A stretch of 64,000 bases of DNA from an uncultured Candidatus Saccharibacteria bacterium. GTDB lineage: Bacteria > Patescibacteriota > Minisyncoccia > UBA6257 > GWB1-50-10. The DNA is taken from the NCBI GenBank assembly GCA_964365955.1, contig CAYISA010000002.1:23329-87328 (forward strand), written 5' to 3'. A model generated the notes under the pieces. That model saw only the letters and a program-made list of their open reading frames with translations. It searched no databases and had not been told where the DNA came from. Positions within the stretch are counted from its first letter, which is position 1. The number at the start of each line of letters is the position of its first letter. A program made the position numbers and the translations under genes. This document shows, one piece after another, positions 2,342-26,458 of the stretch.

Positions 2342-3130
2342 TTATATTCCTGATAATCCGTAGATTTTAGCATCAACCAGAAATCTATACCAAAAACCGT
2401 GTAAAAAATGGAAGATGAATCCGGCTTTACCATCAAGAAAACCGAGCCGGAAAAAATAGCGGTAAATAAAATAACAAAAAACGCGCAAGAACGGCGGAAG
2501 CTGATAGTAAAAATTCCTTTTTTCGCCCATGCCATATTCCCCGGCTTTAACTTCTTCGGCTTCTCGTGAAGCGTAATTTTTGTGTTTTAGGATCCAATTC
2601 TTGAGGTCTTTTTTATTATTATCAATAAAATCGTTGTTTAATCTTCGACTTTCGTCCTCAAGGAGAATGATGTGCTCGTCCATTTTTCTTTCTTCCGACC
2701 GTCCTTTCCCTTTTCGCCAAAGGCGTAAAAACCAGATTGGATAGTATCCACCGTGCTTAATCCACCGGCCCATGAAATAAAATCTGCGTTTCATGTAGAA
2801 GCCCGATATTTCCTTACCTGCCTTCGGCAGGAATTCTAAAATTTCATCCTTGAGTTCCGGCAAAATCTCCTCATCGGCGTCCAATTTCAAAATCCAATCG
2901 CTTGTAATGGCTAAATTATCGAGCCCCCAGTTGAATTGGTCGGCTTGGTTTTTAAAATCATGGGCATAAACTTGGGCGCTATATTTTTTTGCAATTTCTA
3001 AAGTTCTATCGGTACTGTGCGAATCGACGATAAAAATTTCTTGCGCTAAACCAGTAATGCTCTTCAGGCATTTTTCGAGATTTTCTTCTTCATTAAAAGT
3101 CAAAATAATGACTGAAATTGATGACTTCAC
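2342..3130 (-). CDS. glycosyltransferase family 2
   Basis: VIILTFNEEENLEKCL...IFIVDSHSTDRT GT-A signature; DAD-like motif. Confidence 0.8.
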   Translation of the reverse strand: MKSSISVIILTFNEEENLEKCLKSITGLAQEIFIVDSHSTDRTLEIAKKYSAQVYAHDFKNQADQFNWGLDNLAITSDWILKLDADEEILPELKDEILEFLPKAGKEISGFYMKRRFYFMGRWIKHGGYYPIWFLRLWRKGKGRSEERKMDEHIILLEDESRRLNNDFIDNNKKDLKNWILKHKNYASREAEEVKAGEYGMGEKRNFYYQLPPFLRVFCYFIYRYFFRLGFLDGKAGFIFHFLHGFWYRFLVDAKIYGLSGI

Positions 3131-3774
3131 AATTTTTTAGCGAAAACAATCAAATGGGCGCCCAGGGATGGAAAAATATCGCCTAGAATTTCGAAAACTC
3201 TGCCCAATTTATTTCGTCGTGTTGAAAAAAGAATATGTGTGGAAACGAGTTTCAAGACCTTTAAATTTCCTTCTTTGAACATGCTGGCGAGTGTCTTTCT
3301 GTTATACATATGGTAGTGATAGGGAGCGTAAGCAAAATACTTAGGCACCTGTCCGAACAACATCAAAAAACGGTTGGGGCCAAAAACTAAATTGGGCACG
3401 GTGATTATTAAAATGCCATCCGGCCTAAGCGCTTCGCGGCAATGCTGCAAAAAAGCGGAGTCGTCAAACAAATGCTCCATTACTTCGCCCGCAAAAATTA
3501 TGTCGAACTTAACGCCGAAATCAGGAATACCTTTATTTAAATCTGACTGGATTATCTTTATGCCGTTAATCTCTCTGGGGTTAACATCAACGCCAAAACA
3601 TCGCACCCCTTCCTTTTTCAGCATATCGGCAAGCCCCCCCTTCGCCACGCCACATTCAAGGAGATTAAGATTTCGCAAATCCTTAAAATATTCGGTGATA
3701 AAATTATACGCTTTTTTGATCCTTATCGGATCTGGAACCTCGAAATGCTCAAAAACTTCCTGTTTTTTGTCCAT
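3127..3774 (-). CDS. class I SAM-dependent methyltransferase
   Basis: LLECGVAKGG...GVDVNPREI motif I/II; 4-nt overlap with the neighbouring gene. Confidence 0.75.
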   Translation of the reverse strand: MDKKQEVFEHFEVPDPIRIKKAYNFITEYFKDLRNLNLLECGVAKGGLADMLKKEGVRCFGVDVNPREINGIKIIQSDLNKGIPDFGVKFDIIFAGEVMEHLFDDSAFLQHCREALRPDGILIITVPNLVFGPNRFLMLFGQVPKYFAYAPYHYHMYNRKTLASMFKEGNLKVLKLVSTHILFSTRRNKLGRVFEILGDIFPSLGAHLIVFAKKL

Positions 3775-3918: not shown

Positions 3919-4883
3919 CTATAAGATTTTTTGTATATAAAGAGAGGAGGGAAAGTGCCGACCCTCAATGTTTCCACTCCTCAGTCCAAAATCATTCTCC
4001 TGTGGCTTATAACCAGAAAGGAGTTTCTCGAATTCACTGGGGACTGCGTAATGTAGCATACTTAATGACGTGCGTATGACATAGTGTGCGTTCCCGATTA
4101 AAAACGCGTGCAGCAATACACTCTCATTAGAGAAAAAGAGACCGTCTGACATTAAAGCTCTTTTATAATCATACGGGAAATAAATGTCGTGGAAATGCAC
4201 ATAAACACCTTTCGCAAGACGCGATAGCACTTCCAAAATAATGAGATTTACTTCGCTACCAGGTTTCACAGTATGGGTAGAATCAATAAACAAAAGGTCC
4301 CCTTCTCCTAGAGTAAGATATACATCCAAAGGAACACTCTGTGTTTTCTCCTGGTGCAAGGAAATGATATTTTTTTCGCGATCTCCCGCAAAAACTGCGT
4401 AGGATATGGATCAATGCAAATAATATCGCATTTAAAATCGAACTTTTTCATCGCTTGAAGCATCACCGCGGTGGAAAGTCCCGCTCCGACCTGAATAACC
4501 TTGTGGGGGCGTGCAAAACCGAGAAAACAAAATAGAAAATCGGACTCTACCGGACCAAAGCCTGCATCTCCGTTCATACGACAAGCCTCAAGAAAAACAT
4601 TTTCTTCGGACAACATCTGTGCCTTCCCGTTGCAACAACTTTTCGCAAAATCTAGTTGGGCATCCATGTCAGACCCCAGCACACCCACCATTGTACGTGG
4701 ATTCTTCCACGTCGATTCTTGTTTAAGTTCACGAATATCGGGTATTTCAGAATAAAAATGGCGAGGTAATATATCGAATCCTAAATATTGGGCCGCTTCA
4801 AAAAATTTCCTGAGTCCTTTTTTTAACCCCTCCTTAAGGGCTCTTTTACTTTTCTTCATAAGAAATTGTCCTTGTGTGTGCAC
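3919..4883 (-). pseudogene. class I SAM-dependent methyltransferase split into two frames by a frameshift at an A7/T7 homopolymer (4370-4376)
   Basis: ORFs 4308..4883 and 3919..4359 overlap in different frames. Adding one A to the coding-strand A7 tract fuses them into one ~320-aa protein (...REIAKKNIISLHQEKTQ...LLFIDSTHT...). VIQVGAGLSTAV is MTase motif I. Confidence 0.5.
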
Positions 4884-6090: not shown

Positions 6091-6813
6091 CTAATCCATT
6101 TTATTTTTCGACAGATGACGTTCTACTTCCCGATACTTATCCATCGTGTCGATTCCTTTGGAATATTCATCACATTCATAACCGTAGAAATTCTTCCCTT
6201 TTCTGACGATTTCCGGCAAAAGTTCTTTACCGATTTCGTAAGAAATGCCTAGCGGCACAAAATTCAAGATTTCCTTTTTGAGAATAAAAACACCTCGCAT
6301 CCTGTACGCGTTCGGATATTTTTCGGTGTGAGGCTTCGGATGGATCTTCATAAACCGACCGTTCTGATTGAGCTCGGCAATGTCTGCATCCGCGTAATCA
6401 CCTGTCTTTCCCACGCGCTGGATGCCAATAGGATCTTTAAGCTTATCAAAAAAATCGGCCATTGTCGTATAATCAACCAAACTTATCATATCGCCATAGA
6501 TCAGAAAGAACTCGACATCTAATTTGTTTTCAAATTGTTTCACGCCGCCTGCAGTCCCCAAGATGGCGGACTCGAAAACGTAGTTGATTTTAACGCCAAA
6601 CTTGGAGCCGTCTCCAAAATAATTCCGAATCACATCCGGCAAATAATGGAGATTTATGAAAAATTCCGTAACCCCGTGCTTTTTGAACTGCTCGATGTTC
6701 CACTCGAGCATCGGCTTCCCTAAAAGTGGAATCATTGGCTTCGGGATAGTATCGGTAAGTGGCCTTAACCTTGTGCCCAAGCCCGCAGAGAGAATAACGG
6801 CTTGTTTTAACAT
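6091..6813 (-). CDS. hddC: sugar-phosphate nucleotidyltransferase, probably D-glycero-alpha-D-manno-heptose 1-phosphate guanylyltransferase (HddC-like)
   Basis: AVILSAGLGTRLRPLT...KPM nucleotidyltransferase signature; sits next to gmhB, gmhA and hddA. Confidence 0.65.
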   Translation of the reverse strand: MLKQAVILSAGLGTRLRPLTDTIPKPMIPLLGKPMLEWNIEQFKKHGVTEFFINLHYLPDVIRNYFGDGSKFGVKINYVFESAILGTAGGVKQFENKLDVEFFLIYGDMISLVDYTTMADFFDKLKDPIGIQRVGKTGDYADADIAELNQNGRFMKIHPKPHTEKYPNAYRMRGVFILKKEILNFVPLGISYEIGKELLPEIVRKGKNFYGYECDEYSKGIDTMDKYREVERHLSKNKMD

Positions 6814-7409
6814 TTATTTTTTATTATTTTTACTGCTTCGATCAAATTTTTCGCCTTAAAATCCGGTCGTACTTTATTTTCATAGATTCTATCTAACCGG
6901 GAATGACCCGGCCCAGTCTTAACCAGAATCGTCTTTAATCCCGCCCGTTTCCCGGAAACAACGTCGATAACAGAATCTCCAATCATAAAGCTCTTTCGGG
7001 GGTCAATGTTAAATTTTTTAATAGCTTGTTTTAACATTCCGGGGCTCGGTTTCCTGCAAAAACAAACTACCCGATATTTTTTTAATGTCGCTTCCGGATG
7101 ATGTGGGCAAAAATAGAATGCATCGATATGGGCCTTTGAACGCTTGAATCTTTTAATTAAGATTTCATGAAGATCGTCGATGCCTTTTGGTGTAATTAAA
7201 CCGCGGGCCACTACCGGCTGATTTGTCACTACAATCACTAAGAAACCGAGCTTGTTAAACTTGTTTATCGTCTCTGCGGCACGTGGAAGCAGGCGTAATT
7301 GCGAGGGCTTCGTTACTAAATCTTCAAACTTGATGATGGTGCCGTCGCGATCAAGGAAAATCGCTCTACGCAATTTTTGTTTTTTGAACCGATTCCCATT
7401 TTCCTTCAT
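6807..7409 (-). CDS. gmhB: D,D-heptose 1,7-bisphosphate phosphatase (HAD-IIIA, GmhB-like)
   Basis: AIFLDRDGTI, VVTNQPVVARG, CPHHPE...CFCRKP zinc-binding loop; start moved to Met10 of the ORF. Confidence 0.7.
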   Translation of the reverse strand: MKENGNRFKKQKLRRAIFLDRDGTIIKFEDLVTKPSQLRLLPRAAETINKFNKLGFLVIVVTNQPVVARGLITPKGIDDLHEILIKRFKRSKAHIDAFYFCPHHPEATLKKYRVVCFCRKPSPGMLKQAIKKFNIDPRKSFMIGDSVIDVVSGKRAGLKTILVKTGPGHSRLDRIYENKVRPDFKAKNLIEAVKIIKNKC

Positions 7410-7983
7410 TGGTTCTGAATTTTGGATGTGAAACAATCAAATGCCACAGCACCGCCTGGAAAGATTCGGTATGAGGAGTGACGTTCTCGACGTTTACCAC
7501 GGGCACCACAACACAGGCATCAGCAACGGTCTTAGTATACCCCCCGTCGCGCCCTACAATGCCTACCACTTTTGCGCCAATTGATTTCGCAAGTTTCAAA
7601 GACTCCACAATGTTCATGCTAACGTTTTTTTCGGCATTGCCTCCGCCGACAGAAAATACCATAAGCGCGTCCCTAATATTCAATTTGCTTCCTAAAAGCC
7701 AGTTGGCAAAAACCGTGTGCCATCCATCATCGTTTACCCGGGCCGTGAGCTCCGAGACATTATCGGTGGGTGTGTACGTCTCAATGCCCGTAAGTTTTCT
7801 GAAGTCATTTACCGCATGGCTTGCATGCCCCGCTCCGCCACCAACGCCAATGATAAAAAGCCGTCCACCGCCAGTTCGCACATTGTTTAAAATCTCTATC
7901 ATTTTATTCAAAGGTTCGCGGTCAATTTTTTCCGCAATTTCCTTCACTTCATCTAAATAAGATTTTATGTAGTCGTAGTACAT
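7366..7983 (-). CDS. gmhA: phosphoheptose isomerase (SIS domain, GmhA-like)
   Basis: SIS motif GGRLFIIGVGGGAGHASHAVND; pathway context. Confidence 0.7.
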   Translation of the reverse strand: MYYDYIKSYLDEVKEIAEKIDREPLNKMIEILNNVRTGGGRLFIIGVGGGAGHASHAVNDFRKLTGIETYTPTDNVSELTARVNDDGWHTVFANWLLGSKLNIRDALMVFSVGGGNAEKNVSMNIVESLKLAKSIGAKVVGIVGRDGGYTKTVADACVVVPVVNVENVTPHTESFQAVLWHLIVSHPKFRTNEGKWESVQKTKIA

Positions 7984-7998
7984 TTCAAATTTCTCTAG

Positions 7999-8745
7999 TT
8001 ATGCTTCATACAGCGTGTAGCCGGCCTTTTGCCCATCGTCGTAAAACATTTTGACGGTGTCCAAGGAGAGTTCGTGATGGTCATATCCGACTTTCTCCAA
8101 TTTCTTCAAAATGTCGGAAGTGACGGTAACTATTTCACACCCTACTTCATCGGCGTGGTAAATATCCAAAAGCTGTCTCGGACTTGCCCATAACAGTTCG
8201 CACCGAGAAACCTGCGAGGTGATTGCTTTTGCTTCTTTCATGATGGGGGTGGGGTTTACTCCGGTATCGGCGATGCGACCAGCAAAAACGGAAATAATTG
8301 AGGGCGTCTTGGGTGAGAGCGCGCGAACAATGTGCGCTACTTGAGAAACGGTAAGTATTGCGGTTACGTTTAATTTTATCTCTTCTCCCACAAGTTTTTT
8401 TACAAGATCAAATGAAGATTCTTTTTTGGTATTGGTGATCGGTATTTTAACATAAACGTTAGGCGCCCAAGAATTTATGATTCGCGCCTGCCGCTCCATT
8501 TCGTTAAAGTCGTCGGAGAACACCTCAAATGAGATTGGCTTGTCTCTTATAACTCCTAAAATATCTTTTGCAAAAGAAGCATAATCGGTGATGCCCGCCT
8601 TCCTCATTAACGTAGGGTTGGTGGTAAATCCCTTAATATGAGGCTCTTTGGCCAAAGCGACCATTCCTTCTTTTTCAGCTCCATCCGCAAAAATCTTGAT
8701 TTTTAGCTCGTGGGCTTTCTTCGGCATTTTGTAATAATTAAACAA
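7999..8745 (-). CDS. transaldolase / fructose-6-phosphate aldolase family protein
   Basis: GFTTNPTL and ...VKIP... motifs of the MipB/TalC family; could supply sedoheptulose-7-P. Confidence 0.65.
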   Translation of the reverse strand: MFNYYKMPKKAHELKIKIFADGAEKEGMVALAKEPHIKGFTTNPTLMRKAGITDYASFAKDILGVIRDKPISFEVFSDDFNEMERQARIINSWAPNVYVKIPITNTKKESSFDLVKKLVGEEIKLNVTAILTVSQVAHIVRALSPKTPSIISVFAGRIADTGVNPTPIMKEAKAITSQVSRCELLWASPRQLLDIYHADEVGCEIVTVTSDILKKLEKVGYDHHELSLDTVKMFYDDGQKAGYTLYEA

Positions 8746-8763
8746 AAATTAAAAGAAGTCAAC

Positions 8764-9789
8764 TCACCGCTCCCTTGCAAGCCAAATTGGTTTTTTAGTT
8801 TTTGAAGATTCATAAACCGCGGCTATAATCCTATTTGCTTCAAGGCCGTCTTTTGCATCGCCAATAATTTTCCCTTTACCCTGTAGCGCCGATAAAAAAT
8901 TCTTCCATTCTTCTACCCAACTTACGTCTTTCTGAAATTTGAAAATTTTTATTTTCGGTACACCGAATTTTTTAGGTCTTCGACCGAAAACCAATGTTTC
9001 CTCTCCATAACTACCGCCCTTGCCATCAACGGCAAGAAATCCCCTGTCGCCAAAAAGTTCAAAAGAAAATATGTTCTTCCAATTCGTTGTACTCACGTGA
9101 AACGAGGCGGTAACAGTCTTATTTTTCATCAGTACGAAAGTATTATCGTCCAACTTTGTCTTCCAAAATTTTGTTTCTGCAAGACCGTAAACCTCATTAA
9201 AATCGCCGGCAAACCAACGACACAAATCAATGATATGAACGCCTTGATCCAAAAGCTCGCCACCTCCGGAAATATTCTTTTGAAACCGCCATTCTTTCTC
9301 CATTCCCAAGCGACCACCATGGCCATAGCGCGCTCTGATAAAAAGTAGCTTGCCTATCTGACCTTGATCAAAAATTTTCTTCGCCTCTCGAATTGCCGCA
9401 TGAAAACGGTGGTTAAATCCCACTTGAATTAATCTTTTATATTTTTTACCAGCATCAAAAATCTTCTTGGCCTCATCAAAATTCCGGCCAAAAGGTTTTT
9501 CACACAAAAGATGTTTTCCATTTTTGAGCGCAGCCATGGCAATCGGCATCAAAAACTTGTTGGGTGTAGCAATAATGACCACATCAATTTTTTGATCCTT
9601 CACCAAATCCTGCCAGCGACGATATGATTTGCACTTATAATTCTGACTCAGGCTTAAGGCGCGATTCCAGTCAATATCTGCTACAGCCAAAAGACGGGTA
9701 CCACCTACATGTTTTAAGGCCTCGGCACGTTTATTGCCAATTAGTCCAGCGCCTACAATCCCTACATTGATAATCCGTCTTCCTTTCAT
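8764..9789 (-). CDS. Gfo/Idh/MocA family NAD(P)-dependent oxidoreductase
   Basis: N-terminal Rossmann INVGIVGAGLIG...; EKP motif (LLCEKPF). Confidence 0.8.
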   Translation of the reverse strand: MKGRRIINVGIVGAGLIGNKRAEALKHVGGTRLLAVADIDWNRALSLSQNYKCKSYRRWQDLVKDQKIDVVIIATPNKFLMPIAMAALKNGKHLLCEKPFGRNFDEAKKIFDAGKKYKRLIQVGFNHRFHAAIREAKKIFDQGQIGKLLFIRARYGHGGRLGMEKEWRFQKNISGGGELLDQGVHIIDLCRWFAGDFNEVYGLAETKFWKTKLDDNTFVLMKNKTVTASFHVSTTNWKNIFSFELFGDRGFLAVDGKGGSYGEETLVFGRRPKKFGVPKIKIFKFQKDVSWVEEWKNFLSALQGKGKIIGDAKDGLEANRIIAAVYESSKTKKPIWLARER

Positions 9790-9793
9790 AATT

Positions 9794-10621
9794 TTATTTA
9801 ATTCTCCGGAGAGTAAGTTTGTCGCTTTTCATTATCTTTTTTAAATCGCTCTTCCGCCAACCCTGCCAGTCGTCCCAAACGGCGCTGATCAAGCGGCCAC
9901 TAAGTGGTTTGGATTTATCGGAGGCAAGAAAAAGTACAAGTTCCGCAGCTTTTTCAGGGGGCGCACCACCGATTTTCGACCTCTTTTTAGCCGAAGCTAG
10001 CTCTTCCGCGCCAGCTCTTGCTCCGGCACGTAAAACCTCTTTTAGCATTTTTGTATTGACCGCACCCGGCGCAATCGCATTGACCCGGATTCTGTATTTT
10101 TTTAATTCATCAGCTAGAATTTCTGTAAATCTCACAACGCCGGTTTTGGCAACAGCATAGGCGGAAAAATTGGTACGCGAAGAAGTACTGCCGCCACCTG
10201 AAAAATTGATAATGCTTCCTGATCTCCTTTTTATCATCGCCGGCAAAATTAGCTGACAAAGAAATACTGTCCCCAAGAGATTGACTTCCAGATTCTTGCG
10301 CCATTGCCCTAAATCATTTTCAACAAACGAGCCGATGGGTTCCTGAATGCCGGCGGCATTCACAAGTACGTCTATAAAACCATATTTTTTCTGAATGCCA
10401 CGAACCACTTGCGAAGTTTCGTTGAGGTTGGAAATATTAACTGTTTTGAAATCTACTAAACCACCTTCTTTTTTAATCTTGTAAGCCACTATTTTCAATA
10501 ATCTCCGGGAACGACCAAGAATAATTACCTTGGCACCCGCGCGGCAAAAATAATCTGCGATAACCGAACCAATACCCCCGCTTCCACCGGCAATCAAAAC
10601 TACCTTATTTCTAAAATTCAT
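9794..10621 (-). CDS. SDR family oxidoreductase
   Basis: VVLIAGGSGGIG Rossmann motif; YAVAK catalytic motif. Confidence 0.8.
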   Translation of the reverse strand: MNFRNKVVLIAGGSGGIGSVIADYFCRAGAKVIILGRSRRLLKIVAYKIKKEGGLVDFKTVNISNLNETSQVVRGIQKKYGFIDVLVNAAGIQEPIGSFVENDLGQWRKNLEVNLLGTVFLCQLILPAMIKRRSGSIINFSGGGSTSSRTNFSAYAVAKTGVVRFTEILADELKKYRIRVNAIAPGAVNTKMLKEVLRAGARAGAEELASAKKRSKIGGAPPEKAAELVLFLASDKSKPLSGRLISAVWDDWQGWRKSDLKKIMKSDKLTLRRIK

Positions 10622-10622
10622 C

Positions 10623-11609
10623 TTAGAAGTTTGTTAATACCTTTGAGCCCTCAAAATCAAAACGGTATCGCATCTCTCTTAAACCTTCACGTGCCATTGT
10701 TTCGCGGAAATTCTTGTGACCGCCCGGAACGTAAAATATAAAGAATCCTCCGCCGCCGGCGCCGGAGATTTTTCCTCCTAAAGCACCGCTTTCCTTAGCA
10801 AGATCATACAACCGGTCAAATTCCGGATTCGTCATTTTTGAAGATATCTTCTTTTTGTGCTGCCAATGCGCATCAAAAAGCTTTCCCACTTCATCGATAT
10901 TCCCCTCTTCAACCGCCTCAAGAATCTCACACCCGATTTCCTTGATATAATGCATGCTCTCTACAACTTCCTTTTTCTCTTCGCTTACTCCGGAAGATTG
11001 TTCTTGCAAAATTTCATCGGCCTGCCGCGTAACTCCAGTAAAGAAAATTAGTATATTGCGATTCAGTTCATCCGCCACATCCATTGAAACGTTTGCTTTT
11101 CTTAAAGAAACATTTCCATCTTTTTTAATTTCTAAGACTGTGAATCCGCCAAAAGCCGCCATATAAGGATCTTGTTTGCCGATGGGTCGTTTTAAAACTT
11201 CTGCTTCGAGTTTAAAATCTTCTTCGGCTAAAGTTTGAAGAGAAATATACTCTCTTTTTAAAGTGTGGAGGGCGTGGAGAAGCCCCACAGTATAACAACT
11301 TGAGGAACCCAGACCCGTGCCGGCTGGTATATCGGCTAAAGAACTGATTTCTATATTTTTTTCAACGCCGGTCATTCGAAGCGCCTCGCGAACAAGGTCG
11401 TGTTGAATTTGATCCACTCTCTCAACTGTTTCCGATTTTGTGTATTTAAGCCGAATCAAATCGTCGGCTTTCGGTCGGTTAACATCAACAAACATGTATT
11501 TATCAAGGGCGGCTGCAAAAATAAAGCCGCCGTATTTTGAATAGTAGGAAGGCAGGTCGGTTCCTCCGCCGCCCAAAGTAATCCGAAATGGTGTTTGAGT
11601 GATTATCAT
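10623..11609 (-). CDS. hddA: GHMP kinase, probably D-glycero-alpha-D-manno-heptose 7-phosphate kinase (HddA-like)
   Basis: MIITQTPFRITLGGGGTDLPSYY N-terminus and GHMP motif PAGTGLGSSS. Confidence 0.7.
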   Translation of the reverse strand: MIITQTPFRITLGGGGTDLPSYYSKYGGFIFAAALDKYMFVDVNRPKADDLIRLKYTKSETVERVDQIQHDLVREALRMTGVEKNIEISSLADIPAGTGLGSSSCYTVGLLHALHTLKREYISLQTLAEEDFKLEAEVLKRPIGKQDPYMAAFGGFTVLEIKKDGNVSLRKANVSMDVADELNRNILIFFTGVTRQADEILQEQSSGVSEEKKEVVESMHYIKEIGCEILEAVEEGNIDEVGKLFDAHWQHKKKISSKMTNPEFDRLYDLAKESGALGGKISGAGGGGFFIFYVPGGHKNFRETMAREGLREMRYRFDFEGSKVLTNF

Positions 11610-11678: not shown

Positions 11679-12464
11679 CTATTTTCTGGCGTATACATAA
11701 GCAGTGGAACCGACTAACTTGGGTACTATTCTCCCATCCAAATCAACTAAAAATACCTCGAAGCCATTTTCTTTTAATGCTCTCTGAATTTTTAAATAAT
11801 CTACCCTATCACAATGTATCTCCATAGAAATGAGCTTGGTGATCTTCAAAAATTGATTATTGTATAAGAACAAGTTTTCTTCAGAACCGTCGACATCGAC
11901 CTTCAAAAAATCGATTTGTTCGATTTTCTCTTTTTTTATGATGTCATTAAGAGAGAGAGAGAGATTAGAATTTTCGGGATCATTGCTATCAAATCCTAGA
12001 GTATCTCCGACAAAACCATGCAGCAGTTGAATAGTCTCGAAACAACTATTGGTAGCAACATTTTTCTGGAATATTTTAGTACGGGGATAATTTGTTTCTA
12101 CGGCAATTACTTTTTCTGCTCCCAATTTAGCCGCAAGAATAGAAAAAGCCCCGAAACTAGCGCCTAAATCCAAAACAACGTTTCCCTCTTTTATTAAAAA
12201 TCCGGGTAATCGGCAGTATACGTTCCGAGCGTATATCTCATAAGCATAGCCAATCGTATCTTTCTCCGCAATTATTCTTTTGCCAAAAACACGAAAATTC
12301 CAAGCCGACTTATCCATTTCAGAAAATAACGAGGATAGGTTTTTACTTCTTAGTATTTTCGAAAATTGACGGATTAATATTTTCAGAAAACGTATAAAAT
12401 CCCCGAAGGTAAGGGCTAGGAAAAAATCAAAAGGAATTTTTATAGTTCTTAAAATTCTTTTCAT
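11679..12464 (-). CDS. FkbM family methyltransferase
   Basis: VVLDLGASFGAFSI...VIAVE motif typical of FkbM. Confidence 0.65.
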   Translation of the reverse strand: MKRILRTIKIPFDFFLALTFGDFIRFLKILIRQFSKILRSKNLSSLFSEMDKSAWNFRVFGKRIIAEKDTIGYAYEIYARNVYCRLPGFLIKEGNVVLDLGASFGAFSILAAKLGAEKVIAVETNYPRTKIFQKNVATNSCFETIQLLHGFVGDTLGFDSNDPENSNLSLSLNDIIKKEKIEQIDFLKVDVDGSEENLFLYNNQFLKITKLISMEIHCDRVDYLKIQRALKENGFEVFLVDLDGRIVPKLVGSTAYVYARK

Positions 12465-12496: not shown

Positions 12497-13420
12497 CTAT
12501 ATCCTTCCCTTCTCCATCTCCCCTTTAATAAACTCAGCCATTGCGCGCAGTCCTTCTTCAAGATTTGTTTTGGGCTTCCAGCCCAGCGCTACGGCATCCG
12601 AAATATCGGCGAGTGTTTGTGTCGGAACGTCTCCGCTTAGCTGTGGTTTTATGATTGGCTCAATGTCGGATTGTAAAATATTTTTTATTGTATTTAAAAT
12701 ATCTACCACTGAATAAGACTTTCCGCTCCCCAATCTAAACATCCGATTATCTACACGGTCATCGGTAATGCACTGCAAGTGGAAATCATTGATGTCATCT
12801 ACATAAACAAAATCGCGTTTGTTATTTTCCGCTCCTTCATAAATCGTCGGTCGCTCACCCTTTAGTAGTTTTATTATAAAAGCGGACATAACAGGTGGAA
12901 TTAAACGCCGATAATCCTGGCGTGGGCCGTAGACGTTAAAATACCTAACGCCGACCATCGTTACACCAAAAGCCGCGTGGTAACCGTCGGCAATCATTGC
13001 GTCTGTTAATTTACTTATTGCATAGAATCCTTTCAAACGATCGTCGCCTTCTTCAACAGCCGAAGATTGAGCGTAAACAACCTTTCGCACTCCGGCTCTT
13101 TTTGCAGCTTCAAAAACATTCGTAGTTCCAACAACATTAATCTGCATTGTCTCGACGGGATCTTTTTGGCAATCAAGAAGCTGGTTTTTAGCAGCAAGAT
13201 GGAAGACGGCATCAACGCCCTCAAATAATGGATAAATGCTCTGCGAAGAAACATCAACCCTATGAAACTCTACTTCTTTGGGGACTTGATGGGCCGGTCC
13301 ATATGCTAGATTATCAAGGCCCAAAACTTTATAGCCCGCGGCCAGCAATCTATCAGCTAAATTACTGCCGATGAAACCGGCCACGCCCGTAATCAAGATT
13401 TTTCCTTTGCTGACAGCCAT
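12497..13420 (-). CDS. NAD-dependent epimerase/dehydratase (extended SDR)
   Basis: ILITGVAGFIGSNL Rossmann motif; YAISK catalytic motif. Confidence 0.8.
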   Translation of the reverse strand: MAVSKGKILITGVAGFIGSNLADRLLAAGYKVLGLDNLAYGPAHQVPKEVEFHRVDVSSQSIYPLFEGVDAVFHLAAKNQLLDCQKDPVETMQINVVGTTNVFEAAKRAGVRKVVYAQSSAVEEGDDRLKGFYAISKLTDAMIADGYHAAFGVTMVGVRYFNVYGPRQDYRRLIPPVMSAFIIKLLKGERPTIYEGAENNKRDFVYVDDINDFHLQCITDDRVDNRMFRLGSGKSYSVVDILNTIKNILQSDIEPIIKPQLSGDVPTQTLADISDAVALGWKPKTNLEEGLRAMAEFIKGEMEKGRI

Positions 13421-13435: not shown

Positions 13436-14191
13436 CTAAATCTTTTCGGCAACAACACAAATAGAAAGATAGGGATAACCCAACAAATCACTAATAGGCT
13501 TGTCTAAAATCTGGAAAATCCGTAGGGGAAATGTTACAAACCATCCTAAATTATGGAACATGCGATCAAGGACTTTTGCAATCCGACATAAATACTGAGA
13601 AATAAAACCAGTTACATATTCCTCTTTGTTAACTTTGAAACCCGACGCAACTAATAGAGAGTTCATTTCTTTAAATGTGTAACCCCAACGAACGTGGTTT
13701 CCATCCTCAACTTCAGACACACCATCTCCTGGAAAATGCCTGTAATACTTGTAGGGAGTCGTTAAAAGAATATGACCGCCCGGTTTTAAGAACAAACAAA
13801 AATTTTTCAATAATTTTTTATCGTCCATAATATGCTCGATTGTTTCAAAACAGATAATCTCGTCGAAAAGTCCTAAGTCTTTAGCTAGCAAATCGAGTTG
13901 GTTTAGATTTGTATGGACAAATTTCACATTTTTCAATCCCAAAATATCCGCTCTCTCCACTGCTTCGTGATTATTCCTTTCGTCAAAAGAAATGCCGATT
14001 GCTTCCCCACCTCGTTTTGCAGCACAAAAAGTGAAAGCCCCGGAACCGCAGCCGGCATCAAGAACACGTAAATTCCCTGTCCCAAGATTACGTCTCAACC
14101 AAACTAGACGATCAAAGGCCGCTGGGTCGCTCCACAAAACTGCACTCTGATATCCACCAATTTTTAATATTAGTTTTTGAAGAGAGGACAT
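13436..14191 (-). CDS. class I SAM-dependent methyltransferase
   Basis: VLDAGCGSGAFT motif I. Confidence 0.75.
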   Translation of the reverse strand: MSSLQKLILKIGGYQSAVLWSDPAAFDRLVWLRRNLGTGNLRVLDAGCGSGAFTFCAAKRGGEAIGISFDERNNHEAVERADILGLKNVKFVHTNLNQLDLLAKDLGLFDEIICFETIEHIMDDKKLLKNFCLFLKPGGHILLTTPYKYYRHFPGDGVSEVEDGNHVRWGYTFKEMNSLLVASGFKVNKEEYVTGFISQYLCRIAKVLDRMFHNLGWFVTFPLRIFQILDKPISDLLGYPYLSICVVAEKI

Positions 14192-16559: not shown

Positions 16560-17696
16560 TTAAACCTTAAAATAGCCGTCGCGGTCCAAAAAATTTTCTT
16601 TAACAAACACTTGAGATTCTTTTAATTTTAGATCATCTTTCTTCGCAGATCTTCCAAGGAAACCAAAAAGGCGAGAAATGATTCTTGGAATCAAAAGGGA
16701 AGTTACAAGCACACGCTCAATAATAGAAAAATCTTTGAAATATTCAGAAATCACCTTGCGGTTTTCTTTTATATCAAAAAAAGATGGCCGCAATCCTGAT
16801 CTTAAGAAATAAATAAAAAACGTTGCTAAGGATTGCGCTCCTGTATAAATTTTCATTCTGCTGTAAAAGTTTGGATATTTGTATTTATAAATGGATTTAA
16901 AAAAGAGTAGGCCATAATACTCACTCTTCAAGACGTTGGATGCTGAAGAAAATTCAAGATTCTTAAACGTCAAATTGCTTGAATGCGTTATTTTCATAAT
17001 TATGAATGAATCGTCTGAAACGCAGTTTTTATATCTTGTCAAAATTTCCAGAAAAAATATAAAATCGGGAGCATAGGCCTTTTTTAGGGTGATCTCTCTC
17101 AATTCTTCAGGAAAATCTGGGCTATAACAACAATTTTTTAGAAAATAGTTTATGGCACTTAGCGCATCTTCTTTTCTAAACAAAGCGAAGAGACAAGAGG
17201 CGGATAAAAACCCTCGATAGGTTTGCTTTGCAATCCATTCGGCTGAATAAATCCCCGAGGGCACGCTGGCATCCATAATAAAATCAAATTTTTCCTTATC
17301 AATTTCGCGCAAGCTTATTACTCTTGGCATAACGGCAGATGAATCGGGGTAACGTAAAAAACTACGCACGCCCCTTTCAATAGAGTTCCGCGTAAGCCAA
17401 TCATCGGTCCCGAGCCAAATAACGAATTCTCCTTCCGCGAGTTCATACGCTCGCTTGAGACCCGGAATAATGCCAAGCTTCTCGGGATTTCTGAAATACC
17501 TTATCCGCTTGTCGTGTAAAGCATATTCCGCAATTATTCTCTGACTATCGTCGGTGCTGGCATCGTCTACAAGCACAACTTCAATGTTCTTATAAGTTTG
17601 ATTCAGAGAGCTTTCAAGAAATCTGTGAATATATTTCTCCGAATTTAAAAATGTTGCGCAAATACTAACTAATGGTTTTTTGTTATTGAATTTCAT
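16560..17696 (-). CDS. glycosyltransferase family 2
   Basis: VSICATFLNSEKYI...VVLVDDASTDDS GT-A signature. Confidence 0.75.
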   Translation of the reverse strand: MKFNNKKPLVSICATFLNSEKYIHRFLESSLNQTYKNIEVVLVDDASTDDSQRIIAEYALHDKRIRYFRNPEKLGIIPGLKRAYELAEGEFVIWLGTDDWLTRNSIERGVRSFLRYPDSSAVMPRVISLREIDKEKFDFIMDASVPSGIYSAEWIAKQTYRGFLSASCLFALFRKEDALSAINYFLKNCCYSPDFPEELREITLKKAYAPDFIFFLEILTRYKNCVSDDSFIIMKITHSSNLTFKNLEFSSASNVLKSEYYGLLFFKSIYKYKYPNFYSRMKIYTGAQSLATFFIYFLRSGLRPSFFDIKENRKVISEYFKDFSIIERVLVTSLLIPRIISRLFGFLGRSAKKDDLKLKESQVFVKENFLDRDGYFKV

Positions 17697-18685
17697 TGGA
17701 TTTTCTTTTTTGCCAACACATACAGATTCACGCCTCTCAAAAAAACGAACTTGGATAAAAGAAAAAGAAACGGCAAAAGAATTATAACGGGCACCTGCAA
17801 TACAACGGTTTTTATAACGGCGGCTACTTTCAGGATTCTAAATTTTAACGTGTTTTTTTGTTGTTTTTCATGATTAGAAAATTGATCTTTCTTAACCTTG
17901 GCAACTGCGCCGGTGCTCGTTAAAAAACTCAAAAATCCCTGAATAAACTCGTAGTTCTGTCCGATAGTTTCCAGACGTTCCTCGGCGATTTCCATAATTT
18001 CAAAACCCTGGCTCATCAAAAATTTGGACAGGCTGTCTTTATTCCAGCGGGTTAAATGGTGCGGTGGATAATCCCAACCTTCGCGTCTTTTTCTGAGATT
18101 TATGGTTAAAAAAAATCTTCTGGAATTCGGAACGGCGATCGCAAGAACTCCCTTTGAATTAAGTATTCCTTTTATTTCTTTTATAGACAAGGCGGGATCC
18201 TCTAAATGTTCCAGAACATGAAACATTGACGCAACGTCAAAAACAACACCGGGGAAAAGACGCGGGATATCTGAAAGAGCTCCGACTTTCACATTATTAA
18301 ACCCGCAACTTCTTGCCTTCTCTATTGCCAACTCGTTAAAATCTACCCCGAACACATCAAAACCGCATCGTGATGCAACTTTCAAAAATTCTCCGGGTCC
18401 ACATCCTATATCAATAAGTCGGCCTCGTACATTGAATTTTTTAGAATCGGTTGCAAATTTTTGAAATTCCCACTTGTTTTCATCTCCGTATCCCTCACCG
18501 TCAGCTCCGTAATTAAATTCATAATATTCAGATGATCCGGCTTCGATTGAAACACAAAATTCCGCCCCGCAATCATCACAAAAATAAAACGAGTCGTCAT
18601 TGATCGCGCTGGCCGGTTTTACGGATTTAGAGTTACAGAGTGGGCACAAAATGTCTTGAGTGGGATTTTTAATTGAACTTTTCAT
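17693..18685 (-). CDS. class I SAM-dependent methyltransferase with N-terminal C4 zinc ribbon
   Basis: CPLCNS...CDDCGAEFC zinc ribbon; LIDIGCGPGEF motif I. Confidence 0.7.
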   Translation of the reverse strand: MKSSIKNPTQDILCPLCNSKSVKPASAINDDSFYFCDDCGAEFCVSIEAGSSEYYEFNYGADGEGYGDENKWEFQKFATDSKKFNVRGRLIDIGCGPGEFLKVASRCGFDVFGVDFNELAIEKARSCGFNNVKVGALSDIPRLFPGVVFDVASMFHVLEHLEDPALSIKEIKGILNSKGVLAIAVPNSRRFFLTINLRKRREGWDYPPHHLTRWNKDSLSKFLMSQGFEIMEIAEERLETIGQNYEFIQGFLSFLTSTGAVAKVKKDQFSNHEKQQKNTLKFRILKVAAVIKTVVLQVPVIILLPFLFLLSKFVFLRGVNLYVLAKKKIQ

Positions 18686-18782: not shown

Positions 18783-20132
18783 ATGGGGAACTCCCAAAAG
18801 ACGGTGGCAATTTTTGGCCTTGGATATGTTGGACTTCCACTCGCAGTAGTGCTCGCAGAAAAAGGATTTAATGTTCTTGGAATCGACACAAATCCCGAAA
18901 TTCGCGATACGATCATGGAAGGAACGCCCCATTTCTTTGAAACGGGGCTGGAGCCACTTCTTAAAAAATGCATTGGAAAAAATTTTGAAGTTCGCGCATC
19001 CATTGAAAAAGGAGATGCGTCCGTGTTCATCATCACGGTTGGAACGCCCCTTAGCGAAGGAGAAAGGGTTCCGGATCTCACTGCAATAAAAATGGTGAGT
19101 CGGTCGGTTGGTAGAACCCTGAAGCGTGGGGATTTAGTAATTCTACGATCAACCGTTCCAATCGGAGTAACACGTAGGGTTACCCTCCCCATACTGGAGC
19201 AGGAATCCCAAATGAACGCGGGAGGGGACTTTTTTCTTGCATTTGCACCAGAACGAGTTATCGAAGGCGCAGCACTTGAAGAGTTGGTCAAGCTTCCGCA
19301 AGTCGTTGGCGGAGTAAACGAAGAAAGCACAGTCCGTGCACGCGATTTTTTCCAAACCTTCGTTGAAAAAACAATCGTAGTGCGCTCTCTTGAAACCGCC
19401 GAGATTATTAAATTAGCAAATAATGCCTACCGTGATACGATATTTGGTTTTGCAAATGAGTTTTCACGTCTCTGCGGTGCATTCAATATCGACCCACAAG
19501 AGGTGGTCAATGCTGCAAACGCAAATTATCCCCGCGGACACATCCCCTCCCCTAGTCCGGGTGTAGGGGGATATTGTTTAACAAAAGATCCTTACATTTT
19601 AATGAGCTCTGCGGAGTCACGTGGAATTTCCATGTCGATCATTCACGCGGGCCGCAAAAGCAATGAGGTGATGGTACCTTATATTCTAAAAAAAGTTCAA
19701 GATTTTTTTGAGAATATCCGCAAAAAAGATATCCGCAAAGAAAAAATTGCGCTTTTGGGTATGGCGTTTAAGGGGTGGCCAGAAACATCCGACATCCGCT
19801 TCTCACCAAGCATTGATATGGCAAAACTACTTAGAAAGCAGGGAGCGGAAGTGTGGGGACATGATTTTGCGGTTCCCGCAGAAACACTAACGCCGCACGG
19901 AATCAAATTCGCGCTCAGCATAGAAAAAGCGGTACGCGAAGCAAGTTGTATAATACTCATGACCAATCATCCACGTTACCAGGATAAAAGCTGGCTCCCA
20001 TGTCTTGAAGCTTTAAATACTCCGGCCCTTTTTTTCGATCCATGGAGGCTGTGGGATGAAAAAATCATTACAAGCTATCCCCAAGTCTACTACACGAATC
20101 TTGGGTATAGCTCGTTTTACAAATCTCGTTAA
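18783..20132 (+). CDS. nucleotide-sugar dehydrogenase (UDP-glucose/GDP-mannose dehydrogenase family; WbpA-like)
   Basis: VAIFGLGYVGLPLA N-terminal motif and catalytic-Cys region GGYCLTKD; the only plus-strand gene in the island. Confidence 0.85.
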   Translation: MGNSQKTVAIFGLGYVGLPLAVVLAEKGFNVLGIDTNPEIRDTIMEGTPHFFETGLEPLLKKCIGKNFEVRASIEKGDASVFIITVGTPLSEGERVPDLTAIKMVSRSVGRTLKRGDLVILRSTVPIGVTRRVTLPILEQESQMNAGGDFFLAFAPERVIEGAALEELVKLPQVVGGVNEESTVRARDFFQTFVEKTIVVRSLETAEIIKLANNAYRDTIFGFANEFSRLCGAFNIDPQEVVNAANANYPRGHIPSPSPGVGGYCLTKDPYILMSSAESRGISMSIIHAGRKSNEVMVPYILKKVQDFFENIRKKDIRKEKIALLGMAFKGWPETSDIRFSPSIDMAKLLRKQGAEVWGHDFAVPAETLTPHGIKFALSIEKAVREASCIILMTNHPRYQDKSWLPCLEALNTPALFFDPWRLWDEKIITSYPQVYYTNLGYSSFYKSR

Positions 20133-23463: not shown

Positions 23464-24483
23464 CTAGTGTATTTCGGAAATATTTACTACACGTTTCTCT
23501 GCGTTTGATATTCTTGCGGCTTCAAGAATACGCGCTTGAGCCAAAAGATCATCTTCATAATCCTTCGTGCTTGCTTGACCCACAAAAATTTCTTTACAAA
23601 AATCGTCCACCATTAATTTAAAATGGTCGATCGGCGGGAATCCAATTTCCTCAACCCTATCGTTAGAATCAAGAAAAATTTTTGTTCCCATGTCACTTGG
23701 GACAGCATATGCTCGCCCCATTCTTATATGAGCCTTAGTACCCAAAACACTGTAGGTTGATTGAAAGTAAGAACCAAAGAATGAAGTAGTTGAGGCTGTT
23801 CGTCCCTCGGAATATTCCAGAAGTACGGTTGCGCCTATATCAACACCACTCTTCGGATCGATTTCCAATCGACAAAAAACACTGACCGGCTCTTCACCAA
23901 AAACCATCCGACTTGCAGAGACCGGATATACCGCACATGAGTTCAAAGATCCTCCCTCTAAATCTTTCTTCATCGCAATATCTGTTTCCTCAGGCATGGT
24001 AAAACCAAGACAACCATCAAATTTGGTAAGCCTCCCTAGAGTTCCTTGTTCTATCAATTCTTTTACTTTTATTTGTTGGGGGTGATAACGAAACATCAAG
24101 CCCTCAAGAAGCCGAACTTTGTTTTTTTTTGCAGCACCAACCATTCGCTTTGCTGCCGCATAAGAAATAGCGGCTGGTTTTTCGCAAATTACATGCTTTC
24201 CGGCCTCAAGTGCTTTCACAGTCCACTCTTCGTGAAGAGAGTTGGGAAGAGAAATATAAACCGCTTGAATATCCTTATTTTCTAAAACTTCTTCATATGT
24301 TCCCCACTTGTCCGCACCGAATTGCGCTGCGACTTCTTTTGCTTTTTCAGAGTTCCTACTTCCCACCATGCTAAGCTCGGAATATTCCGAACTTCCTATT
24401 GCGGAAAGCATCCTCTTCAGGGCAATACGTGATAAACCAATGACGCCAAATTTAACTTTAGAATTTTGTTTTTTTGTAGTCAT
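23464..24483 (-). CDS. Gfo/Idh/MocA family oxidoreductase (WbpB-like)
   Basis: KFGVIGLSRIALKR, CEKP motif. Confidence 0.8.
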   Translation of the reverse strand: MTTKKQNSKVKFGVIGLSRIALKRMLSAIGSSEYSELSMVGSRNSEKAKEVAAQFGADKWGTYEEVLENKDIQAVYISLPNSLHEEWTVKALEAGKHVICEKPAAISYAAAKRMVGAAKKNKVRLLEGLMFRYHPQQIKVKELIEQGTLGRLTKFDGCLGFTMPEETDIAMKKDLEGGSLNSCAVYPVSASRMVFGEEPVSVFCRLEIDPKSGVDIGATVLLEYSEGRTASTTSFFGSYFQSTYSVLGTKAHIRMGRAYAVPSDMGTKIFLDSNDRVEEIGFPPIDHFKLMVDDFCKEIFVGQASTKDYEDDLLAQARILEAARISNAEKRVVNISEIH

Positions 24484-24498
24484 GATATGTCAATTGCT

Positions 24499-25230
24499 TC
24501 AGGATTTTTTTGCTATAACGATAACATTTTGTGTAAAAACTCCTACCCCACTCCCGGCTTCAACTAGACGGTACAAACGAAGGCGAAGCTCAATACAAAA
24601 CCATAAAATAAGCCGAAGGAAAGAGATGGGTCCATGAGCCGTCGGCCGGACTGAAAAGACCTGCACTGCATCAAAGCCATATGCCAAAAGTATCTGTTTT
24701 AAACTTGAGCCAGTAAAACTTGTATCGTGTGTAAAGTCACCATAGCGGAGACGGCCACTCATCGGACTTTCGGCATTCGGAGTTTTTATAATAAGGGTTC
24801 CACCTTTTTTTAATGACTCAAAAATTAATTCCATAATTTCTAAAACTTCAGCTTTTTCAAAGTGACCCAAGACATCCCGTATAAAAATCAGATCAAAAAA
24901 ATTCTTTCGAGTTTTCAAAAAATTGCTCAGATCGTCCTTCTCAATTCCAGAGATACCAATTTTTTTACCCAACTCAATCTGCTCAGAACTCACATCAACC
25001 CCCACAGCATTTTTATAATCCAAGGACCTTAACCAATAAACAAAACCACCGTTGCCACATCCCAGATCAACAATATTCGCATCGGTATTCCCCGTCAAAA
25101 ATCCGGAATAATAATTATTCCAAGCAGTAAACTGGTTTTTAATAATTTCCAAGCTAGTGTCCCCATAAAGATTGTGATTGTGCTGGGAAACGTACTTTGA
25201 ATAAAATTTTTCTTTGTAATTACTCTCCAT
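24499..25230 (-). CDS. class I SAM-dependent methyltransferase
   Basis: IVDLGCGNGGFV motif I. Confidence 0.75.
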   Translation of the reverse strand: MESNYKEKFYSKYVSQHNHNLYGDTSLEIIKNQFTAWNNYYSGFLTGNTDANIVDLGCGNGGFVYWLRSLDYKNAVGVDVSSEQIELGKKIGISGIEKDDLSNFLKTRKNFFDLIFIRDVLGHFEKAEVLEIMELIFESLKKGGTLIIKTPNAESPMSGRLRYGDFTHDTSFTGSSLKQILLAYGFDAVQVFSVRPTAHGPISFLRLILWFCIELRLRLYRLVEAGSGVGVFTQNVIVIAKKS

Positions 25231-25233
25231 GAT

Positions 25234-26400
25234 TTAAGAAAGGGACTGAAGAACTGCTTTTAAAGTACGGACAACATAACTTTTTTCTTCATCGGTTAAA
25301 ATCGGGCCACTGGGAATATAAAATCCATTTAGGCCAAGATTGTTTGCAACCGGGCAGTCCTCTGGCTTCGCCAATCCTTTCTTAATGAAAATGTCTTGCA
25401 TATTGTACGGAATAAAATCTTCTCGAACTTCGATTCCCTGCCTTAATAATTCTTTAAGAACAGCTGACCTCTTCCCATGGGCGCTTCCACGAAGGATTAC
25501 ATTAAACATCCAGTACACATTCTTGGCATACGGTTTTTCTACAGGAAGCTGAAGTTGCTCTACATCCGCAAGTTCTTTTAAATAAAAGGAGGCGAGTTCT
25601 CGTTTTTTTTGAATGATAAAATCAATTTTTTTAAGCTGAGCCAACCCTAGCGCCGCCTGCAAATTCGTAAGCCGATAATTAAAACCAATCTCCTGATGCA
25701 TGAATTTGTTTTCTTTTCCAAACGCAAGCGCCTTTAGCATCCGCGCTCTTTCTGCAAGCTCCTTGTTATTGGTTGTGATCATTCCACCTTCACCAGTCGT
25801 GATTATTTTATTCGCATAAAAACTAAAACAACCAATATCACCCAAGGAACCGACTTTTCTCCCTTTGTATTCTGTGCCATGCGCTTCAGCACAATCTTCA
25901 ATTACATACAGGTTATGTTTTTTTGCAATCGCTAAAATTGGATCCATATCAACCGGGTGCCCGTAAATATGAACAACCATAATCGCCTTAGTTTTTGGCG
26001 TTATCTTTGCCTCAATCAAATTTGGATCAATGTTCCATGTGTCCGGTTCACTATCGATCGGAATGGGCCTTGCTCCTTGGTAATGGACAGCAAAGAAAGT
26101 GGCCATATTCGTAAAGCTCTGCACAAGCACATCATCACCCGCACCGATCTTCAGGGCCGCAAGTGCCAGATGAAGCGCCGTCGTCCCGTTTGATACAGTT
26201 ACTGCATGCTCAACCCCACAATAGCGCGCGAAGCCGGTTTCAAAGTCTGTTATATAGTTTCCGGAAAACCCAGAAAGCTCTCCTTTGTTTAGAGCGTCAT
26301 TTACAAACTTTTTTTCTTCTTCTCCAATAACCGGCTGGGAAACAGGGATTTTCATAAGAATTACAGGTGTAATTATGACGAAGTGGTGCAAAAAATACAA
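25234..26400 (-). CDS. DegT/DnrJ/EryC1/StrS family PLP-dependent sugar aminotransferase (WbpE-like)
   Basis: Characteristic SFxxxK lysine region (SFYANKIITTGEGG) and N-terminal cofactor-binding region. Confidence 0.85.
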   Translation of the reverse strand: MYFLHHFVIITPVILMKIPVSQPVIGEEEKKFVNDALNKGELSGFSGNYITDFETGFARYCGVEHAVTVSNGTTALHLALAALKIGAGDDVLVQSFTNMATFFAVHYQGARPIPIDSEPDTWNIDPNLIEAKITPKTKAIMVVHIYGHPVDMDPILAIAKKHNLYVIEDCAEAHGTEYKGRKVGSLGDIGCFSFYANKIITTGEGGMITTNNKELAERARMLKALAFGKENKFMHQEIGFNYRLTNLQAALGLAQLKKIDFIIQKKRELASFYLKELADVEQLQLPVEKPYAKNVYWMFNVILRGSAHGKRSAVLKELLRQGIEVREDFIPYNMQDIFIKKGLAKPEDCPVANNLGLNGFYIPSGPILTDEEKSYVVRTLKAVLQSLS

Positions 26401-26401
26401 A

Positions 26402-26430: not shown

Positions 26431-26458
26431 CCCCCGCCTCTACCTTGAGCTTTGTAAC

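Follow-up and report, generated by a model that had tools for sequence, protein, structure and literature searches.

The 64,000-nucleotide stretch of DNA analyzed here (the window), from an uncultured Candidatus Saccharibacteria bacterium, carries a block of seven tightly packed minus-strand genes at positions 6091–11609 for which the best description is a widespread and new variant, primed by a transaldolase, of sugar-activation pathways of the GmhA/HddA/GmhB/HddC type. The product of this variant has a credible chance of being an eight-carbon sugar, and we give a transaldolase-primed nucleoside diphosphate (NDP)-octose a probability of about 0.45. A broader proposal is offered tentatively: that the block is one copy of a laterally mobile cassette, with at least 575 matches among species-representative genomes and common in bacteria of the Candidate Phyla Radiation (CPR), which makes NDP-octose for cell-surface glycans. 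Our literature searches found no description of the cassette.

The open reading frames (ORFs) and their translations give the following order in the direction of transcription: an HddA-like GHMP sugar kinase (10623–11609; Pfam GHMP_kinases_N and _C), a classical short-chain dehydrogenase/reductase (SDR; 9794–10621; adh_short, 1.8e-50), a Gfo/Idh/MocA sugar dehydrogenase or ketoreductase (8764–9789; GFO_IDH_MocA plus C-terminal domains), a TIGR02134-type transaldolase (7999–8727 from its ATG, the ORF extending to a TTG at 8745), an SIS-domain ketose/aldose phosphate isomerase of a distinct GmhA-related subfamily (7366–7983; SIS_2), a GmhB-like HAD-IIIA phosphatase with a zinc loop (6807–7409 from the likely ATG, the ORF reaching 7436), and a sugar-1-phosphate nucleotidyltransferase (6091–6813; NTP_transferase, 2.3e-29). 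Pfam domain matches agree with all seven assignments (E-values of 1e-8 to 1e-50), and the gene set listed in an initial annotation of the window thus stands. Adjacent genes are separated by 1–36 nucleotides or overlap slightly, and the coding strand has no strong terminator-like site within the block, which therefore reads as an operon. Independent Logan metagenome contigs show gene calls in the same order; the block is real coding sequence, not a chance pattern. Megablast searches with the block and with a housekeeping stretch returned no match, and an E. coli or O-antigen affiliation was rejected.

An extended-SDR NDP-sugar epimerase/dehydratase (12497–13420, minus strand; Epimerase, 1.4e-48) lies upstream of the kinase and is a member of the cassette in CPR bacteria. 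The two are separated in the window by a gene for an FkbM-type methyltransferase (11679–12464), which has a homologue in none of the related loci examined.

A transaldolase bound to its partner genes

The transaldolase is the sole cassette protein, among itself and the four "heptose" enzymes, to pass a curated NCBIfam family cut-off (TIGR02134, 320.3 bits against 281.95), and its homologue in Methyloglobulus scores 327.7 bits. In an alignment to 3s0c, residues D15, N37, S66, E68, K94, T122, F148, R151, S182, and R184 are present. None of the catalytic residues of the Thermoplasma acidophilum transaldolase is missing: Lys94 is the Schiff-base lysine, and Phe148 is the transaldolase-type residue where an aldolase has Tyr. 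With all of them in place, the protein is expected to be catalytically active, as a transaldolase rather than an aldolase. The 242-residue form starting at the ATG at 8727 agrees with the gene call and is 100% identical to the NCBI protein 'MAG: transaldolase [Patescibacteria group bacterium]'; the 248-residue form starting at the TTG has no exact database record and was set aside.

A scan of species-representative genomes seeded with this transaldolase returned at least 575 relatives. The best 80, from which the taxonomy was taken, include Patescibacteria, Thermoanaerobaculia, Polynucleobacter, Rhizobium, Methyloglobulus, Legionellales, Pelagibacteraceae, Leptolyngbya, Chlorobiaceae, Geobacteraceae, Omnitrophota, Chloroflexota, Bacteroidia, Verrucomicrobiia, and others. 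Gene neighborhoods were compared in the 47 genome loci having at least 6 kb of flank on each side of the transaldolase homologue (full loci), which span Patescibacteria, Acidobacteriota, Pseudomonadota, Chloroflexota, Bacteroidota, Cyanobacteria, Omnitrophota, and others. Near the transaldolase were an SIS gene in 45 of the 47, a kinase in 44, a HAD phosphatase in 41, and a nucleotidyltransferase in at least 35. Gfo was present in 33, the SDR in 30 (without exception alongside Gfo), the epimerase in 30, and an NDP-sugar dehydrogenase in 20. On these counts, the core consists of the transaldolase, SIS, HAD, kinase, and nucleotidyltransferase genes. Three other CPR contigs have the order epimerase, kinase, transaldolase (74–76% identical), SIS, HAD, with Gfo, SDR, and nucleotidyltransferase close by; the usual order outside CPR is SDR, Gfo, kinase, nucleotidyltransferase, SIS, HAD, transaldolase, within about 5.4 kb. 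Transaldolase identity is 58–81% across phyla. Together with the SIS protein, the enzyme is the most conserved member: CPR and proteobacterial copies of these two share about 60% identity, as against 30–47% for the others.

The linkage also holds from the side of the isomerase. Among 22 SIS-seeded metagenome loci with flanks, 16 have the TIGR02134-type cassette transaldolase, and two more, plus several partial loci, have a TalC/FSA-like transaldolase-family gene directly after SIS. This second lineage, about 30% identical to the first, likewise has the Schiff-base Lys and a transaldolase-type Phe. With Phe rather than Tyr at the diagnostic position in both lineages, fructose-6-phosphate aldolase chemistry was rejected. 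Loci L154 (9986–11289) and L093 (3164–5033) illustrate the arrangement, a cassette-type SIS gene being followed by a TalC/FSA-like transaldolase where other loci have the TIGR02134 type; L093 has a second SIS gene after the transaldolase.

Several genomes encode cassette members fused in a single ORF, namely transaldolase-SIS (P0121) and transaldolase-HAD (P0123, P0125, P0128, P0144). Such predicted fusions are Rosetta-stone evidence for a shared pathway. Another predicted fusion of the cassette transaldolase to SIS or HAD occurs in a further genome (P0133), and P0129 is an apparent tandem duplication of the transaldolase.

It could be argued that the transaldolase is a housekeeping enzyme of the pentose phosphate pathway that sits in a glycan locus by chance. 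The TIGR02134 family is thought to provide transaldolase activity in Staphylococcus and Coxiella, and the cassette protein resembles that type in passing the curated cut-off and in keeping the Schiff-base Lys, Ser-x-Glu, Asp, Thr, Phe, and phosphate-binding Arg. Relatives of this type on Staphylococcus, Lactobacillus, and Streptomyces plasmids (46–52% identical) are not annotated beside cassette-type genes, and a few loci, such as L059, have the transaldolase with no cassette partner nearby. In contrast to those relatives, members of the cassette clade, which share at least 58% identity with the window protein across phyla, are nearly always linked or fused to kinase, SIS, and HAD. Kinase and SIS linkage of 94–96% across many phyla, the existence of fusion proteins, and the second transaldolase lineage taking the equivalent position in some loci all stand against a chance placement, which the co-occurrence data bring close to refutation and which we regard as very improbable. 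The locus context argues for a dedicated role rather than a housekeeping one. From its conservation, the SIS-seeded linkage, the fusions, and the intact catalytic residues, the transaldolase looks intrinsic to the pathway. The initial annotation was right to see an embedded transaldolase-family gene, which it proposed could supply sedoheptulose-7-phosphate; the gene is no casual neighbor but an obligate member of the cassette.

Coxiella was rejected as a characterized carrier: its O-antigen region has an HldE-like kinase (CBU0678), and the Coxiella literature searched makes no mention of a transaldolase. In a tblastn search of plasmids, the sole Streptomyces transaldolase found was a non-Lmb protein adjoining an arabinonolactone oxidase.

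The sugar-activating enzymes and the remodeled isomerase loop

The block had been read as a complete GDP-D-glycero-alpha-D-manno-heptose pathway. This is not established by our comparisons, in which the GmhA, HddA, GmhB, and HddC counterparts all fall far below the equivalog cut-offs. The same four models also fail in the Methyloglobulus copy of the cassette. The kinase scores 174.6 bits against a cut-off of 600 for HddA (NF049969), yet HddA is its top-scoring family (3.5e-51), ahead of fucokinase (1e-29), mevalonate kinase (3e-22), and galactokinase (3e-13), and its best matches in the PDB are the heptose kinases 4usm, 3k85, and 4n3o (E ~1e-43). The claim of an HddA-type rather than HldE-type route is therefore borne out, as is the separation from galacto- and mevalonate kinases. 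By family, the enzyme is predicted to be an anomeric kinase acting on an aldose omega-phosphate.

The phosphatase likewise misses the alpha-type GmhB model (NF050049, 91.2 bits against 250) and PRK08942 (145.9 against 178), but exceeds the cut-off of the HAD-SF-IIIA model (TIGR01662, 109 against 44.6) and passes a histidinol-phosphatase-domain subfamily model. Heptose 1,7-bisphosphate phosphatases in the PDB match it at 1.6e-28. Its translation contains C-P-H...C-F-C, the Cys-x-His...Cys-x-Cys zinc loop of GmhB-type HAD-IIIA phosphatases, which agrees with the GmhB-like enzyme originally described.

The nucleotidyltransferase stands apart from the other three. Its family was called correctly, but its affinity to HddC is not clear: the HddC model (NF049965) gives 81.8 bits against a cut-off of 300, while mannose-1-phosphate guanylyltransferase and archaeal GlmU both give 120 bits and MurU also exceeds HddC. 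In the PDB, 8x7s matches at 3e-36 and the HddC structure 5xhw at 3e-15. Because the guanylyltransferase, GlmU, and MurU models outscore HddC, a GDP form of the product is plausible but unproven. Identity among CPR cassettes is 57–70%; loci outside CPR have a different nucleotidyltransferase (~30% identity) in the equivalent role.

The SIS protein scores 46.2 bits against the GmhA cut-off of 209.45 (TIGR00441), and GmhA structures in the PDB match it at only E ~1e-8. Its Methyloglobulus homologue has no NCBIfam match at 1e-15 or better. The metal/catalytic His residues are conserved, and Asp takes the place of the catalytic Glu. The phosphate loop is altered, reading SVGGGNAEKNVS in place of the canonical STSGKS, a six-residue insertion that breaks the S-T/S-S-G-x-S motif. 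In GmhA, the loop at the insertion site binds the substrate phosphate. A second motif, GNGGSA in GmhA, is GVGGGAG in the window protein.

These changes are shared by the SIS proteins linked to a transaldolase. The insertion occurs in 75 of 77 transaldolase-linked homologues, with a loop consensus of SVGGGNxEKNxS, GVGG(G/S)AG in place of GNGGSA, and a conserved C-terminal PK...KWES tail. It is absent from the GmhA proteins of C. jejuni and B. pseudomallei, from the SIS protein at the HygP position of a hygromycin B-type cluster on a Streptomyces plasmid, from the SIS proteins of a second Streptomyces cluster and of a Rhizobium plasmid cluster without transaldolase, and also from the second SIS gene of L093, though that locus has a TalC-like transaldolase. 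The proteins with the canonical loop, from the transaldolase-less clusters and the second L093 gene, are 22–30% identical to the window protein. Because relatives at this distance keep the canonical loop, the change tracks transaldolase linkage and not mere divergence.

The SDR reaches no NCBIfam equivalog, and the nearest solved structures to the Gfo/Idh/MocA protein are levoglucosan dehydrogenase, inositol 2-dehydrogenase, and the C-glycoside 3-oxidase DgpA. The epimerase is 51–68% identical among, and next to the kinase in, most CPR loci; it resembles GalE, LegB, and heptose-6-epimerase, with every model below cut-off. By their frequency the redox enzymes are a common add-on, and family membership suggests that they and the epimerase act in tailoring. 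Conservation of Gfo and SDR as accessory genes in about two-thirds of loci fits the tailoring role first proposed for them. The NDP-sugar dehydrogenase at 18783–20132 and the family 2 glycosyltransferase (GT2) genes of the window were excluded from the cassette because they are only 24–36% identical to the cassette-associated dehydrogenase and GT2 proteins elsewhere.

Octose, heptose, or another higher-carbon sugar

We propose that the seven genes and the epimerase make up a self-contained cassette, in which an unusual higher-carbon sugar would be built and activated for use in the surface glycan encoded by the surrounding locus. The transaldolase would transfer a dihydroxyacetone unit from fructose-6-phosphate or sedoheptulose-7-phosphate to an aldose phosphate, giving a dedicated ketose phosphate, which the specialized SIS isomerase would convert to an aldose omega-phosphate. 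The GHMP kinase would then place a phosphate on the anomeric carbon, the HAD-IIIA phosphatase would remove the distal one, and the nucleotidyltransferase would form an NDP-sugar, possibly in the GDP form. Gfo/Idh/MocA, SDR, and epimerase could finally alter the stereochemistry of the NDP-sugar by oxidation and reduction. The enzyme families, the intact catalytic residues, the obligate co-occurrence, and the fusions are observed; we infer how the steps are ordered, which acceptor is used, and which carbon number and nucleotide the product has. By analogy with lincomycin biosynthesis (LmbR, LmbN, LmbP, LmbK, LmbO), the acceptor would most likely be ribose-5-phosphate and the product an NDP-octose (C8).

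The lincosamide octose route is the sole characterized parallel for entry through a transaldolase. LmbR transfers a C3 unit from fructose-6-phosphate or sedoheptulose-7-phosphate to ribose-5-phosphate to give octulose-8-phosphate (PMC4351081 Table 2; PMC5854111); the isomerase LmbN, kinase LmbP, phosphatase LmbK, and guanylyltransferase LmbO follow, and the oxidoreductases LmbL and LmbZ and the epimerase LmbM tailor the GDP-octose (PMC4351081 Table 2; PMC12945683). The cassette resembles the lincomycin and celesticetin GDP-octose pathways in clustering the same five enzyme types behind a transaldolase (PMC4351081 Table 2; PMC5854111; PMC12945683) and in having dehydrogenase/oxidoreductase and epimerase tailoring enzymes. 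We favor an NDP-octose because the enzyme types of the lincosamide pathway are present in equivalent roles. The settings differ: the lincomycin genes lie in an actinomycete antibiotic cluster and feed aminotransferase and thiosugar chemistry, whereas the cassette lies in surface-glycan loci with glycosyltransferases, in many phyla, with no aminotransferase inside.

Several points weigh against an octose. The likeness to the Lmb/Ccb enzymes is one of enzyme type, any orthology with them being putative. For both the kinase and the phosphatase, the closest characterized relatives are enzymes acting on heptose, and the co-occurrence and fusions are equally compatible with a channeled supply of sedoheptulose-7-phosphate. 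The remodeled SIS loop is a sign of divergence, not of carbon number, and 4 of the 22 SIS-seeded loci have no transaldolase-family gene within reach. To our knowledge, octoses have not been reported as common constituents of glycans.

The product may instead be GDP-D-glycero-alpha-D-manno-heptose or a tailored derivative, made from sedoheptulose-7-phosphate by divergent GmhA, HddA, GmhB, and HddC proteins with the transaldolase as a dedicated source of that substrate (fructose-6-phosphate + erythrose-4-phosphate to sedoheptulose-7-phosphate + glyceraldehyde-3-phosphate). The GDP-heptose pathway, as in the Aneurinibacillus S-layer glycan, Campylobacter and Burkholderia capsules, and Yersinia O-antigen, has the same four protein families, with a GHMP-type rather than HldE-type kinase, and supplies the closest solved structures for the cassette kinase and phosphatase. 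Except for the nucleotidyltransferase, the best-scoring characterized relatives of the activating enzymes (kinase, phosphatase, isomerase) are heptose-pathway proteins. The transaldolase passes TIGR02134, a family defined as genuine transaldolases, with its catalytic residues kept, and a private supply of sedoheptulose-7-phosphate is conceivable given the reduced central metabolism of CPR bacteria. A survey of CPR genomes also scores heptose biosynthesis, 'only in Paceibacteria' (PMC9166423), a score that may reflect matches to the cassette itself.

Other findings make a heptose less likely than an octose in our judgment, though still a serious rival. The four equivalog cut-offs are missed by wide margins, the SIS loop is remodeled, the nucleotidyltransferase is not specifically HddC-like, and the transaldolase is an obligate extra member. 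The cassette transaldolase is kept in Rhizobium, Polynucleobacter, Methyloglobulus, and other bacteria with a full pentose phosphate pathway, in which a supply gene would be redundant. The heptose-type clusters that we retrieved (hygromycin B-type and Rhizobium plasmid) have no transaldolase, and we know of none in the heptose clusters of Campylobacter, Yersinia, and Burkholderia. Nor would a heptose account easily for the SIS loop, canonical in clusters without transaldolase and carrying the insertion in 75 of 77 linked proteins. The hygromycin B heptose genes show this contrast: they too cluster an SIS gene with a HAD phosphatase and a kinase of HddA-like type (33% identity to that of the window), but with no transaldolase, a canonical SIS loop, and a GalT-type nucleotidyltransferase. 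The Rhizobium cluster, on Rhizobium phaseoli plasmid pRphaR630a (L089) and about 55 other Rhizobium plasmids, is generically annotated and comprises SIS, GT2, a hypothetical protein, a lysyl-phosphatidylglycerol (PG)-synthase-like transmembrane protein, an epimerase, a 649-residue HAD-IIIA fusion, a GHMP kinase, and two oxidoreductases.

A different acceptor, such as arabinose-5-phosphate, a hexose-6-phosphate, or a modified aldose phosphate, would lead to a different octose stereoisomer, a nonose, or some other unusual sugar; Gfo and SDR might also act on the sugar phosphate before activation. None of our results constrains the acceptor, two transaldolase lineages serve the cassette, and the presence of Gfo and SDR in only about two-thirds of loci implies that core and tailoring steps are separable. 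We know of no precedent for such a route. Ribose-5-phosphate and erythrose-4-phosphate are the sole documented physiological acceptors for enzymes of this kind in sugar building (PMC5854111), and we consider other acceptors improbable.

The surface glycans of uncultured CPR bacteria, chemically uncharacterized, probably mediate attachment to host cells. The cassette, with seven enzymes that can be cloned, is a defined route to one of these sugars, and its product is directly identifiable in culturable carriers (Methyloglobulus morosus, Rhizobium jaguaris, R. panacihumi, Polynucleobacter, and Lawsonia intracellularis). Should this product prove to be an octose, a class of sugars familiar from the biosynthesis of lincosamides would extend to primary envelope biosynthesis in many phyla, eight-carbon aldoses would be a widespread, overlooked building block of bacterial envelopes, and 'transaldolase' and 'heptose pathway' calls in metabolic reconstructions of CPR bacteria would need re-reading. 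If it is a heptose, the cassette would still be the first system of GDP-heptose type in which a private transaldolase is obligate. It would also show that a transaldolase match in a reduced genome is no automatic sign of pentose phosphate pathway capacity.

The full set is also present, under generic PGAP names, on Lawsonia intracellularis plasmid 3 (L088, NC_008014). There and in Methyloglobulus morosus (L054), the cassette stands alongside GT2, GtrA or lysyl-PG-synthase-like membrane proteins, an NDP-sugar dehydrogenase, and very large hypothetical proteins. These neighbors hint at transfer by way of a polyprenyl-phosphate carrier and extracytoplasmic glycosylation.

The surrounding glycan locus

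The block lies inside a minus-strand glycan locus of about 32 kb (282–32493). CPR bacteria have no outer membrane or lipopolysaccharide, and the location of the block in a surface-glycan locus of such an organism matches the non-lipopolysaccharide setting initially suggested. G+C content is 0.37–0.47 across positions 1–32500 and 0.45–0.52 across the housekeeping part of the window (32500–64000; ClpB, an HtrA-like protease, tRNAs), a contrast consistent with a lateral origin of, or different constraints on, the glycan island.

The locus encodes many GT1 and GT2 glycosyltransferases, seven S-adenosylmethionine (SAM)-dependent methyltransferases, a DegT aminotransferase, a second Gfo/Idh/MocA protein, and a Wzy_C protein. 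A GDP-mannose 4,6-dehydratase (27664–28863, minus strand), a sugar C-methyltransferase (28829–30061, plus strand), a small cupin (30069–30446, plus strand), the DegT aminotransferase (25234–26400, minus strand), and the second Gfo/Idh/MocA enzyme (23464–24483, minus strand) suggest a second nucleotide-sugar module at 23464–30446, for a GDP-linked 6-deoxy amino and/or C-methyl sugar. The seven methyltransferase genes (3127–3774, 3919–4359, 11679–12464, 13436–14191, 17693–18685, 24499–25230, and 28829–30061) point to a heavily methylated polysaccharide. The ORF at 3919–4359, which matches only the C-terminal part of Methyltransf_24, overlaps by about 50 nucleotides with an ORF lacking any Pfam match (4308–4883). 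The same split recurs in the gene calls of an independent contig (L001), and 3919–4883 may represent a methyltransferase with a frameshift or a programmed split.

At the edge of the locus, the Wzy_C/O-antigen-ligase-like membrane protein (31063–32493) adjoins a protein of 1111 residues (32553–35888) whose sole recognizable domain is the peptidoglycan-binding PG_binding_1. Elsewhere in the window, five tRNA genes (His, Phe, Arg-TCT, Pro-TGG, and Gly-TCC) are spread over 9 kb (49257–57907) amid short ORFs.

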